A stretch of DNA of 36,526 nt from Clostridia bacterium. Its GTDB lineage: Bacteria > Bacillota > Peptococcia > Peptococcales > BICA1-8. Where the stretch lies: contig JAAZJU010000018.1 in the NCBI GenBank assembly GCA_012800195.1, forward strand, positions 1-36,526, given 5' to 3'. Position 1 is the first letter of the stretch; each line of letters begins with the position of its first letter. A program made the translations under genes and the position numbers. The notes under the pieces are model-generated. The model saw only the letters and a program-made list of their open reading frames with translations, was not told the origin of the DNA and did not search any database. Positions 10,547 to 36,526 of the stretch are shown here, one piece after another.

Positions 10547-10692
10547 CTTTTGATCTCACCAGATTTTTTGGGGAAATAGTTGCTAAAGGCAATAGGGTCA
10601 GCTACCTCAAGAGGAGTTTTTCCTAAGGTCTTCAATAAAGAATATTTTTCACCTAAACTTGTTTTCTTGAGCCATTCTTTTTTATGAGCCAT
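10531..10692 (-). CDS. Hypothetical 53-aa basic protein
   Basis: My own translation: MAHKKEWLKKTSLGEKYSLLKTLGKTPLEVADPIAFSNYFPKKSGEIKSPENK. Strong RBS (AAGGAGGTG) 5 nt before the ATG. The stop sits in the loop of a terminator hairpin followed by a T-rich tract. Confidence 0.55.
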   Translation of the reverse strand: MAHKKEWLKKTSLGEKYSLLKTLGKTPLEVADPIAFSNYFPKKSGEIKSPENK

Positions 10693-31278: not shown

Positions 31279-31326
31279 GTACTATGATACTCTGGAAAGA
31301 TGAAAGAAGTAAATGGAGGATAGGCA

Positions 31327-31572
31327 ATGCGTTTAGATAAATTTTTAAAGGTTTCCCGCTTAATTAAGAGACGAACAGTGGCCAAAGAGGTTTGTGATGG
31401 TGGGAAAGTAAAAATAAACGGCACTACAGCTAAGGCTGGTAGTGTGGTCAAAGTTGGAGATGTGATAGAAATAACCTTTGGCGAGAAAGTAATTAAAGCC
31501 AAAATATTAGAAGTAGCGGATAATGTACCTGCTGCTAAAGCCCGGGAAATGTATGAATTATTATCTGAGTGA
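31327..31572 (+). CDS. yabO: S4-domain RNA-binding protein YabO
   Basis: MRLDKFLKVSRLIKRRTVAKEVCDGGKVKINGTTAKAG is an S4 domain. Syntenic with yabN/hup upstream. Confidence 0.85.
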   Translation: MRLDKFLKVSRLIKRRTVAKEVCDGGKVKINGTTAKAGSVVKVGDVIEITFGEKVIKAKILEVADNVPAAKAREMYELLSE

Positions 31573-31609
31573 GTTAGTTAGTTAGTGTGTAAGTGTGTAA
31601 GTGTGTAAG
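31573..31609 (+). repeat. Two short tandem repeats abutting the yabO stop: (GTTA)x3 then (TGTGTAAG)x3
   Basis: gttagttagttag spans 31573-31585. tgtgtaag occurs at 31586, 31594 and 31602. Confidence 0.9.
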
Positions 31610-31615
31610 AGTTTT

Positions 31616-31713
31616 GGTCTAGCTCAATGGTCGGCATTACGTCTCCTACGTCTAGCTTTTTGGTCTGCATTATGTCTAATCTGTCTAGCTTAGGGGTCAG
31701 CATGTAAGCTTAA
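31616..31713 (+). repeat. Left arm of the repeat array: three 33-nt units
   Basis: TCTAGCT at 31618, 31651 and 31684. GGTCNGCAT at 31629, 31662 and 31695. Same orientation as the array at 36269 onward. Confidence 0.75.
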
Positions 31714-31873
31714 ATGCTGACATACAGAATAACCAGAAAGCAGTAATGCTGTCAATCAGATTAGCTTATTAGACGTCATGCTGACGTGCAGAGTATCTCT
31801 TGAGCCGTAATGCTGACATGCAGAAAAACTTATTAGCCGTGATGCCGTCATAAAGAATGACATAGAAGTTTAA
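31714..31873 (-). repeat. Right arm of the repeat array: five 32-nt units in the opposite orientation
   Basis: ATGCYG at 31714, 31746, 31778, 31810 and 31842, an exact 32-nt period. Minus-strand consensus CTGCATGTCAGCATTACGGCTNANAAGNNATT. The arms meet at the palindrome GTCAGCATgTAAGCTTAaATGCTGAC (31696-31721). Confidence 0.85.
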
Positions 31874-31953
31874 AAACGCGCCCGCGGAATAACGGCTTCG
31901 CTGACTACAAGAATTGCTTATAAGATAACATGAATATTTCCCCCCTCTTATTC

Positions 31954-32057
31954 TACTGTAGGAATTTATATAACTTTGCAATTATGCAAAGTGGCTAAGG
32001 AATACAGTACTGAAATGCGCACTATAAGGGAAACGAATAATGTGCGCATTTCTTGTG
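31954..32057 (+). repeat. Copy B of the same non-coding element, immediately upstream of spoIID
   Basis: Aligned to copy A as described there. Copy B also contains a perfect 11-bp hairpin, GAAATGCGCAC (32012-32022) / GTGCGCATTTC (32042-32052). Confidence 0.8.
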
Positions 32058-32094
32058 ATACTAAAGGTATAAACAATTTAAAGGGGGAATTTTT

Positions 32095-33030
32095 ATGGGA
32101 AAAAGCAAGGGAAGGCTAATAATATTTATCGCGTTGATTCTAATTTTAATTGTGGCCTGTACTCCTCAAAAAAGACCTGAGCAAAAAGAACCTACTGACC
32201 AAGAGCCAACAATTAGTTTATATGTTGCGGAAACAGGAGAAACCAAAGAGATAGCTCTAGAAGAATATTTATATGGGGTAGTTGCTGCTGAAATGGATCC
32301 TAAGTGGCCCAGGGAAGCCTTAGCTGCTCAGGCTATTATTGCTAGAACCTTTACATTAGTTAAGATTGAAGAGGGTGGAGTGCCAGCGAGAGGTACCGAT
32401 GCTTCAACGGATATAGAAGAATTTCAAGCCTATAATCCAGACAGAATAAATGATAATGTAGTGAAGGCCGTGGATAGTACTAGAGGAGAAGTGGCTCGTT
32501 ACCAGGGGAAATTGATTAAAACCTGGTTTCATGCGGATGCTGGTGGCAAGACAGCAACTGCTGAAGAAGGCTTAGGCTATACCCAGTCTCCCACACCCTT
32601 TATTCAGGTAGTAGATGATCCAGGTATAAATATTACGGTGAAGGAAAATAAAAATTGGCAAGTAAGCTTCCCTATTGCTCAAGTTGCTAAGGCTGTTCAA
32701 GAGGTTACAGGACAAAATCCCGGCAACTTTACTTCTGCAGAAATAACAGAAAAAGGTCCTTCAGGACGGGCTACCAAAATCAGGTTTGGCCAAACTGAGG
32801 TGAGTGGTCCTGCTCTAAGACTTGCCTTAGGTAGTACAGAAATGCGATCAACTCTTTTAACTAGTCTTAGCGTCCAAGGCGGCAAGGTTGTGATGACAGG
32901 TAAAGGCTTTGGTCATGGAGTAGGAATGAGCCAGTGGGGAGCCAGAGCTCTAGCGGAAAAAGGTAAATCTCCAGAAGAGATTGTTCAATACTTTTTCAAA
33001 GATGTAGAAATAGTCAAAGAGTATAAATGA
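32095..33030 (+). CDS. spoIID: Stage II sporulation protein D (SpoIID/LytB-domain lytic transglycosylase)
   Basis: Motifs AQAIIARTF, WFHADAGGKT and GHGVGMSQWGA. N-terminal hydrophobic anchor with a lipobox-like LILIVAC. RBS AAGGGGGA. Confidence 0.9.
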   Translation: MGKSKGRLIIFIALILILIVACTPQKRPEQKEPTDQEPTISLYVAETGETKEIALEEYLYGVVAAEMDPKWPREALAAQAIIARTFTLVKIEEGGVPARGTDASTDIEEFQAYNPDRINDNVVKAVDSTRGEVARYQGKLIKTWFHADAGGKTATAEEGLGYTQSPTPFIQVVDDPGINITVKENKNWQVSFPIAQVAKAVQEVTGQNPGNFTSAEITEKGPSGRATKIRFGQTEVSGPALRLALGSTEMRSTLLTSLSVQGGKVVMTGKGFGHGVGMSQWGARALAEKGKSPEEIVQYFFKDVEIVKEYK

Positions 33031-36085: not shown

Positions 36086-36253
36086 ATGGTATTAGAATCT
36101 AGACCTGATAATACTGAACAAAGCTATAAGTGCAGTGAATGCGGCCTGATGTTTTCCAAAAATAAAGAAGACAGTCTGGAATGTCCCTTCTGCCACCATC
36201 TCTGCCAAAAGGGAGAGTGTGAGGTAGTAGGAAGTTCCAACGAAGGCTACTGA
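36086..36253 (+). CDS. Hypothetical 55-aa Cys-rich zinc-ribbon micro-protein
   Basis: My own translation: MVLESRPDNTEQSYKCSECGLMFSKNKEDSLECPFCHHLCQKGECEVVGSSNEGY. Strong RBS (GAGGAGG) 8 nt upstream, 24 nt after the ppx stop. Confidence 0.55.
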   Translation: MVLESRPDNTEQSYKCSECGLMFSKNKEDSLECPFCHHLCQKGECEVVGSSNEGY

Positions 36254-36268
36254 TGCTCAAGGGCTAGC

Positions 36269-36526
36269 CTGCATGACAGCATTATGGCTCAAAGGATAAT
36301 CTACAGGTCGGCATTACGGCTTACAAGTAATTATGGATGTCTGCATTAGGCTAACGGGATATTCTGCATGTCAGCATGACGGCTTATAAGCAATTCTGGA
36401 TGACAGTGTGTAAGAAAACACAGTGTCATCGTGACACCGTGCCACTGTGCTACCGAAAACCGAGACATGTCTGACAAGGAATCTTGCTTGTTAGAAGCAT
36501 CTGACAGGCAATCTCTCTGGTTAGAA
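36269..36526 (+). repeat. Second array of the same 32-nt repeat family, running off the window edge
   Basis: Units start at 36269, 36301, 36333 and 36364 (31-32 nt each), followed by more degenerate units to 36526. The unit at 36269-36300 is 27/32 identical to the reverse complement of 31792-31823. Confidence 0.8.

Follow-up and report, generated by a model that had tools for sequence, protein, structure and literature searches.

The window analysed here is a 36,526-nt stretch of DNA from a Clostridia bacterium (contig JAAZJU010000018.1 of assembly GCA_012800195.1, positions 1 to 36,526 of the forward strand), and its subject is a block of phased 32-33-nt repeats, hereafter array 1, in the gap between a yabO-like gene and spoIID. 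The block is a convergent pair of arms, with three units in the left arm and five in the right, and it is read here, with moderate confidence, as one locus of a clade-restricted, dispersed, non-coding family of intergenic repeats with a mosaic or foldback-like organization. The family is apparently undescribed; nothing pertinent turned up in the literature under the genome names, the clade or the core sequence. Array 1 is not a sporulation- or origin-specific device, because the same family occupies many intergenic gaps, usually right after stop codons.

The gap between the yabO stop codon (31570-31572) and the start of spoIID (32095) holds the repeat mosaic that constitutes array 1. The layout proposed in an initial annotation of this DNA, in which three 33-nt units run into a 26-bp palindrome that is followed by five inverted 32-nt units, was recovered with all of its coordinates. 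Two arrays are reported by Tandem Repeats Finder (TRF), one with a 33-nt period at 31617-31703 and one with a 32-nt period at 31713-31845, and a repeat search of the window finds three 33-nt copies at 31617, 31650 and 31683 (the left units spanning 31617-31715), phased 32-nt copies at 31714, 31746, 31778 and 31810 (a fifth, at 31842, is visible in the sequence), and at 31696-31721 a palindrome whose gapless 13+13-nt arms are 92% complementary. With up to 3 mismatches allowed, the window contains 12 matches to the 15-nt core GTCAGCATTACGGCT, compared with 0.41 expected and a maximum of 3 in 100 shuffles, and 10 of the 12 matches are grouped in two clusters. A unit profile run with nhmmer over the whole window finds three '+' and five '-' units at 31628-31855 and four '+' units at 36269-36394, with no further unit in the window beyond these two arrays. 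The second of them, array 2, is of the same family, lies ~4.4 kb from array 1 at 36255-36400, and begins 1 nt past the stop codon of an open reading frame (ORF) of 55 aa (36086-36253). The features of the region, in window coordinates, are as follows.

31327-31572, plus strand: yabO-like gene with an S4 domain (ORF; PF01479 on an identical product), whose stop codon at 31570-31572 is the upstream boundary of the mosaic.
31568-31609, plus strand: short tandem repeats (AGTT)~4.8 and (AGTGTGTA)~3.2, directly 3' of the yabO stop and ahead of the first unit (TRF).
31610-31715, plus strand: left arm, a partial unit (AGTTTTGGTCTAGC) and then, in the TTTTGG-head subtype, three '+' units of 33 nt whose cores lie at 31630, 31663 and 31696.
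31696-31721, no strand: near-perfect 26-bp palindrome GTCAGCATgTAAGCTTAaATGCTGAC, at the junction of the last '+' core with the first '-' core.
31714-31873, minus strand: right arm, five inverted 32-nt units of the CTGCATG-head subtype in exact phase (TRF, repeat search, core scan, nhmmer).
31877-31888, no strand: GC-rich element GCGCCCGCGG, bordering array 1 on its distal side (comparison with metagenome contigs).
32095-33030, plus strand: spoIID, the downstream gene (PF08486), with a promoter region at ~31930-32090 between it and array 1.
36086-36253, plus strand: small Cys-rich ORF of 55 aa (sequence; gene call in metagenome contigs L001/L003).
36255-36400, plus strand: array 2, in which a partial unit GCTCAAGGGCTAGC precedes four '+' units of 31-32 nt that show a dimeric higher-order period of 63 nt (TRF, core scan, nhmmer).
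36400-36526, no strand: centre-like segment (GACAGTGTGTAAG...CACAGTGTCATC) and then 30-nt CATCTGACAGGCAATCTC..GGTTAGAA units resembling diverged '-' units, extending past the end of the window (TRF).

Array 2 was not mentioned in the initial annotation, and the unit consensus given there fits array 2 better than array 1. The units were also taken as one family, which they are, but the left units of array 1 (GTCTAGCTTTTTGG head) belong to a TTTTGG-head subtype and the right units to a CTGCATG-head subtype. The impression that the region is GC-richer than its surroundings holds only to a modest extent, at 0.40-0.42 along array 1 vs 0.34-0.385 in the adjoining 200-nt windows. No intrinsic-terminator-like site is found at 31573-32094, which agrees with the earlier remark that none separates yabO from array 1, and the palindrome at 31696-31721 is not followed by a T run; an intrinsic terminator was thereby ruled out as an identity for the array. 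The period of 32 nt is not a multiple of three, TAA, TAG and TGA occur inside units and no Shine-Dalgarno motif is present, in agreement with the earlier statement that the units encode no peptide repeat.

The distribution of the family was determined with a search pattern consisting of the degenerate 21-mer CTRCAKGWCRGCATKAYGGCT. In a collection holding one genome for each of 185,579 species the pattern was found in 32 stretches, 20 of which, all with arrays, come from three related metagenome-assembled genomes (MAGs): Peptococcaceae bacterium UBA3933 (15), Peptococcaceae bacterium BICA1-8 (4) and Clostridia MAG AS01afH2WH_13 (1). The other 12 are singletons from unrelated taxa, of which 11 are isolated cores and one (L037) is a two-core cluster that is taken as chance; about 17 chance matches would be expected at this collection size by the analysis's own arithmetic estimate. 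Phased arrays are confined, among the 185,579 species genomes, to the three related MAG species. A scan of metagenomes with the same pattern gave 43 stretches, ~28 of them with arrays and mostly from UBA3933-like strains of bioreactor metagenomes; the viral contigs scanned gave 0 matches and the plasmids none, and a phage or plasmid origin was rejected on these grounds. The organism of the window is absent from the loci recovered by these scans; its nearest named relatives, judged by SpoIID, are BICA1-8 (73%) and Clostridiaceae bacterium BRH_c20a (70%).

Placement of the arrays follows a consistent pattern. Among 59 arrays at 47 loci none lies inside a long ORF, the two-core cluster L037 of an unrelated genome excepted. 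Removal of duplicates left 43 non-redundant runs, 25 of which have their start between -13 and +89 nt relative to the stop codon of an ORF that is co-oriented and 90 aa or longer; the two runs in the window likewise start behind stop codons, in this case of short genes, for a total of 27 of ~40 assessable runs, and the remaining runs are mostly the distal arms of two-orientation (convergent) arrays. At most junctions the run starts 0-26 nt past the stop codon, and at many the first partial unit (GCTTTTGGG...) lies 1-5 nt past it; some of the stop codons are themselves supplied by a GGTTAA module. Runs are direct (e.g. +++++) with at most one orientation switch, and the two-orientation arrays, which amount to ~11 distinct loci including the window, are all convergent ('+' then '-'), with 0 divergent. 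The genes upstream of arrays are unrelated to one another (Tex, transketolase, GerA, ArgG, hydrogenase, LytR, AtpC, CggR, iPGM, NuoL-like, Asd, UvrB, UvrA, GlmM and others). Arrays also occur in the intra-operon gaps cggR-gapA, pgm-eno and uvrB-uvrA, the first and last of which are filled by repeat modules from the stop codon to the ribosome-binding site (RBS).

The unit of the family is 32-33 nt long and consists of an asymmetric conserved core, with the consensus CTGCATG-WCRGCATKAYGGCT or the alternative head TTTTGGG, followed by a species-specific spacer of ~11 nt. The positions G-N-C-N-GCAT-N-ACG-N-CT are kept in 4 of 4 species groups, a conservation that is partly ascertained, since units were gathered by core match. 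The ~11 nt after the core read TTTTGGGTTATA in the UBA3933-like group, AAAATGCAAAT in BICA1-8 and TACAAGTAATT in the window. The CTGCATG and TTTTGGG heads often alternate, giving rise to higher-order periods of 63-65 nt; direct tandem runs comprise 2-6 units, and about half of the loci have two facing runs with a short centre. Identity between units is 61-80%, the core being degenerate and 15-21 nt long with spacers of ~11-17 nt. These values exclude a CRISPR array, with its near-identical repeats of at least 23 nt and unique spacers of ~26-72 nt, and unit size, degeneracy and asymmetry exclude DnaA boxes; parS and the ram sites of RacA, which are few palindromes of 14-16 bp clustered around oriC, were ruled out because the core is asymmetric and the arrays lie beside diverse housekeeping genes on many contigs. 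The exclusions of CRISPR, parS and DnaA boxes had been made initially on sight of the array and are borne out. A promoter-like ATGACA-N16-18-TATACT in units was judged species-dependent and probably due to chance.

A dyad, GTCA-N3-TGAC, had been singled out as the shape of a dimeric DNA-binding site. It is present, as ACGTCATGCTGACGT at 31773-31787, but in only 2 of the 15 units of the window and in 14 of 180 distinct units of the family (8%). This frequency is not above that expected from independently varying halves (odds ratio 0.73, p = 0.46), and the dyad depends on three variable positions; therefore no selected twofold symmetry is seen in the conserved core, and the dimeric shape is not a property of the family.

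The asymmetric core is probably the recognition site of a putative trans-acting protein, because the core is kept across genera while spacers are homogenised within species. Such a protein could be a transposase or recombinase acting on non-autonomous elements, or a host DNA- or RNA-binding protein. Arrays would change by unequal recombination and gene conversion, and selection would keep them in the 'safe' interval that separates a stop codon from the promoter or RBS that follows. Were the basic entity an inverted-arm element whose outward end is fixed, this property would suffice to produce both the co-orientation of runs with the gene before them and the restriction of inverted pairs to convergent ones. 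At the locus in the window a likely side effect would be that transcription reading through from yabO, a gene lacking an intrinsic terminator, runs into a long and imperfect inverted repeat before it reaches the spoIID promoter.

The foldback (FB) elements of Drosophila have long inverted arms of tandem 10-31 bp repeats, a variable arm length and a short centre. The arrays resemble them in the inverted tandem-repeat arms, the variable arm length, the short centre and the fixed polarity of the outer ends, a likeness that would explain the convergent-only arrangement; fixed outward polarity of terminal inverted repeats, as in miniature inverted-repeat transposable elements and foldback elements, is seen here in the ~11 convergent and 0 divergent loci. 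Unlike the arrays, however, FB elements belong to eukaryotes (the comparison implies no homology), many loci of the present family have one arm, and mobility, target duplications and a transposase are for this family only hypothetical. At the centres of two convergent arrays (L051:7000-7060 and L039:7488-7550) a common GTCATTGAACGT motif is found in opposite orientations, with the polarity of the arms unchanged.

Several observations weigh against the foldback-like reading. Solo runs make up about half of the total and almost always lie beside stop codons, not starts; a simple 'truncated foldback' model does not predict this, and a genuine polar function may be at work. The array flanks yielded no transposase or other associated gene, and neither a target-site duplication nor an empty site could be delimited (a relative with 89% identity, L082, is without array 2, but the boundaries are unalignable), so that mobility is putative. 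Close strains have equal unit numbers; therefore the arrays are not hypervariable, and a behaviour like that of variable-number tandem repeats was rejected on the same strain pairs. Array orientation, gene strand and GC skew co-vary in these contigs, therefore a transcription-linked polarity is inseparable from a replication-linked one. Finally, among genes whose downstream gap is 120 nt or longer, a terminator-like site is present somewhere in that gap for 6/25 followed by an array vs 88/160 others (p = 0.0048). At 19 junctions no consistent flanking motif was found.

It is possible, with a probability well below that of the dispersed mosaic or foldback-like family, that the arrays are instead a polar signal at gene 3' ends, in which a protein specific to the clade reads repeated asymmetric sites, in the nascent RNA or in the DNA, along the direction of gene expression. 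The roles proposed are those of factor-dependent terminators or insulators, an antisense block, or protection of mRNA 3' ends, with the convergent pairs as bidirectional versions. Such a signal would agree with the start of most runs 0-26 nt past the stop codon and always in the orientation of the gene, with the occurrence of convergent pairs only, with the conservation of the core across genera and with the presence of a mosaic in the yabO-spoIID gap of several related genera. It would also agree with the depletion of intrinsic terminators behind genes followed by arrays, which is seen both in the whole-gap counts given above and within 110 nt of the stop codon (1/25 vs 55/160, p = 0.0017), although the latter measure is biased by construction, as the array occupies that space. 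In the window, yabO and the small ORF have no terminator and spoIID, yabQ and yabR have one. The depletion, however, fits either a terminator-substitute role or a preference of arrays for intra-operon gaps; arrays lie inside conserved operons (cggR-gapA, pgm-eno), where termination would be harmful; at two junctions the array begins only past a canonical terminator and would hence be rarely transcribed; array 2 is missing in the 89%-identical relative, which has an ordinary terminator instead; and the signal is without a known candidate protein. A Rho rut-like, C-rich antisense composition was considered and dropped, as it is true of UBA3933-like units and not of those in the window (by the analysis's own count).

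The 32-mers sit among other short tandem repeats, namely (GGTTAA)n, (ACTAGYC)n, (AGTGGGCG)n and (TTATCCGTGT)n, together with small GC hairpins and a GATGCATC hairpin module. A wider version of a gene-end function, marginally less probable than the polar signal and offered tentatively, is that the arrays and the ordered hexamer, heptamer, octamer and decamer repeats might together form a clade-wide system of cis-signals for gene ends. The 32-mers, at the same low probability, might be repeated asymmetric sites that a dedicated protein reads along the direction of expression at gene 3' ends; they might let sense transcription pass, insulate against antisense transcription or read-through or protect 3' ends, and partly replace terminators; it is just as tentative that sense-oriented heptamers might mark the 5' side next to the RBS.

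As to the heptamers themselves, (ACTAGTC / ACTAGCC / ACCAGCC)n repeats are sense-oriented and lie at most 80 nt upstream of starts, where they account for 16 of the 24 period-7 arrays found before starts, examples being L042:4838-4870, L015:6168-6192 and L028:2131-2181 along with other loci of the family. Intergenic heptamer direct repeats are known as STRR from heterocystous cyanobacteria. TAACTGA heptamer repeats occur in Beggiatoaceae, Cyanobacteria and Bacteroidetes, are placed just upstream of starts and are sites of contig breaks (PMC4679880); Firmicutes are not mentioned in that paper (0 occurrences; PMC4679880). The position of the sense-oriented heptamers just upstream of starts, and the contig breaks, are shared with the TAACTGA repeats, which are the nearest published parallel for the surrounding heptamers (PMC4679880). 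Unlike TAACTGA and STRR, the heptamers here are ACTAGYC, and the comparison covers the neighbouring short repeats, not the 32-nt units.

Repetitive extragenic palindromes (REPs) and the bacterial interspersed mosaic elements (BIMEs) that they form were among the possibilities named initially, and it was held that units scattered through the genome together with a RAYT gene would mark an ordinary family of this kind. Clusters of REP/BIME are bound by several proteins (IHF, gyrase, Pol I) and affect mRNA 3' ends. The family resembles the BIME/REP of enterobacteria and pseudomonads (including REPIN and RAYT systems) in being dispersed, high-copy, clade-specific and extragenic, beside housekeeping genes, in 3' flanks and between cistrons, with inverted hairpin-forming clusters; its scatter over dozens of contigs is in line with what was anticipated. 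The core moreover contains TTAC, which is the target tetranucleotide of IS608. A REP, however, is an imperfect palindrome of 20-40 nt able to form a stem-loop. The unit here is not of that kind (its 4-bp dyad is confined to 8% of copies, and direct arrays fold like shuffles), the copies are direct 32-nt tandems and not alternating, with a single orientation switch per locus, there is no GTAG-type head, and the orientation of runs follows that of the upstream gene. No match at E <= 10 was obtained with a profile of five Y1 (IS200/IS605) transposases in 3246 translated stop-to-stop segments of the 790 kb flanking the arrays, a search of limited sensitivity for distant RAYTs, and the RAYT half of the expectation is thus not borne out in these flanks. 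An ordinary REP/BIME family mobilised by a RAYT (IS200/IS605-like Y1 transposase) is accordingly improbable, and the name is only loosely right, as an analogy and not a membership.

Two further suggestions are very improbable. The first is that of a centromere-like or polar-anchoring nucleoprotein scaffold of the origin-proximal sporulation region, for which the period of 32 nt (~ three helical turns), the origin-proximal gene content of the window (mfd, spoVT, yabN, yabO, yabP, yabQ, divIC) and the presence of two arrays inside 5 kb would speak. It is largely refuted by dispersal: the same arrays lie behind atpC, uvrA, uvrB, cggR, pgm, glmM, asd, argG, nuoL-like and hydrogenase genes on many contigs, the site is asymmetric and the dyad is no feature of the family, and stop codons, not chromosome position, govern placement. 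The second, equally remote, is that the array encodes a repetitive structured RNA (a small RNA or a cis-regulatory RNA). Convergent arrays of UBA3933-like genomes form very long hairpins (z = -8.6 and -9.95), and array 1 folded as DNA gives z = -3.4; but array 1 folded as RNA gives z = -1.2, and the direct array 2, with z = +0.66, folds no better than shuffles. Mismatches between arms are 55 of the G.U type, 54 of the A.C type and 150 others. There is no wobble bias, therefore arm pairing arises from inverted similar units and not from selection at the RNA level. Rfam 15 gives 0 matches in the window at the gathering threshold, and at E <= 1 the sole match in 31300-32150 is a chance RT-3 in yabO (15 bits vs a threshold of 40.5).

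Two other bacterial systems offer comparisons with the dispersed mosaic family. Mycobacterial interspersed repetitive units (MIRUs) are 46-101 bp long, with small ORFs that extend over the adjacent stop and start codons (translational coupling); they were reportedly described by Supply et al. in 1997. The arrays share with MIRUs tandem units of tens of nt at tens of intergenic loci, often intra-operon, that abut the upstream stop and have the orientation of the flanking genes, and differ in that a period of 32 nt changes the reading frame from unit to unit, stop codons occur inside units, there is no RBS and inverted pairs make up half of the loci. BOX elements of Streptococcus pneumoniae have a fixed A-Bn-C order. 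With BOX and the NIMEs of Neisseria the arrays have in common a modular intergenic mosaic, an internal module repeated a variable number of times and complementary outer modules; the modules are unrelated in sequence, however, and here the 32-mers keep no constant order with respect to the hexamer, heptamer, octamer and decamer modules.

Synteny of yabO and spoIID is conserved in relatives, and in four related contigs of distinct sources the gap contains a related palindromic mosaic with other unit subtypes. In the 89%-identical relative these are ACACTG-type '-' units, and the contig ends in the gap; BICA1-8 has GATGCATC modules; the two other related contigs have GTGTCACCGTGCC-type units with a common CTGCATGTC head. 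In two more distant relatives the gap is 69 nt long or is without such repeats. In place of array 2 the 89%-identical relative (L082) has octamer repeats and, as read from the sequence, a terminator-like GC hairpin followed by a T run; by synteny with the same contig the next gene beyond array 2 is probably spoIIE.

Changes within arrays are also seen. Comparison of L028:1960-2200 with L065:1-230 shows identity through the upstream gene and two units, with full divergence from inside a unit core, which suggests a recombination breakpoint in the mosaic, a MAG misassembly being possible. In one metagenome strain (L004:10290-10345), relative to window 31617-31680, units 1 and 2 are changed toward each other (CAA to TTT, T to G), which looks like gene conversion within the array.

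The arrays coincide with the ends of assembled sequence. Six metagenome contigs with an identical yabO product are ~identical to the window, and 4 of 6 end in a repeat-rich stretch just past array 2, as is typical of assemblers at multi-copy repeats. Contigs of the window organism and of the 89%-identical relative end at arrays. In the UBA3933 scaffolds L021, L025, L032, L034 and L035 runs of N directly adjoin arrays, so that the published UBA3933 MAG probably under-represents the number of units. A BRH_c20a-like contig (L084:9076-9167) has a different 31-nt tandem repeat (TTAAGCCGATGGGCTAAACAGGATGTCAGTT, 3 copies) 3' of hbs; therefore several ~30-nt families coexist in the clade.

A number of smaller observations concern the flanks of the two arrays. 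The sequence AGTGTGTAAG from the microsatellites near the yabO stop reappears where array 2 ends, at ~36405. On the distal side of array 1, metagenome contigs from this organism (L001-L006, ~10555-10575) have GCGCCCGCGCGCCCGCGG in place of the GCGCCCGCGG of the window, which amounts to one additional copy of 8 nt. Relatives have GAATATT-N16-GATACTAA ~45 nt before the spoIID RBS, which resembles a sigma-E promoter. In the window GAATATT (31932-31938) and GATACTAA (32057-32064) are ~120 nt apart, and the segment inserted between them contains a hairpin GCGCAC-N21-GTGCGC (~32016-32048) and a second GAATAAT (32035-32041), 15 nt before GATACTAA. Beyond array 2 (window 36400-36526, L001:15080-15354) there are 30-nt CATCTGACAGGCAATCTCTCTGGTTAGAA units and ~33-nt CATCGTG(G/A)CAC... 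units. No tRNA or tmRNA was found in the window.

For the window, these results remove a tempting reading of array 1 as a sporulation centromere, and the family explains assembly breaks at two places in the region. More broadly, they document in uncultured Peptococcaceae-like Clostridia a repeat family for which no published description was found and which is unusual among bacterial dispersed repeats: the core is asymmetric, units are directly phased at 32 nt, runs are placed at stop codons with the orientation of the gene, and inverted pairs are convergent only; entire intercistronic gaps, from stop codon to RBS, are made of repeat modules. The 21-nt core is a practical marker for binning and scaffolding these MAGs. 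If the polarity of the arrays reflects a protein that reads gene ends, it would represent a new mode of punctuation of transcription units; if the arrays are foldback-like mobile elements, they would be a rare bacterial case of that architecture.

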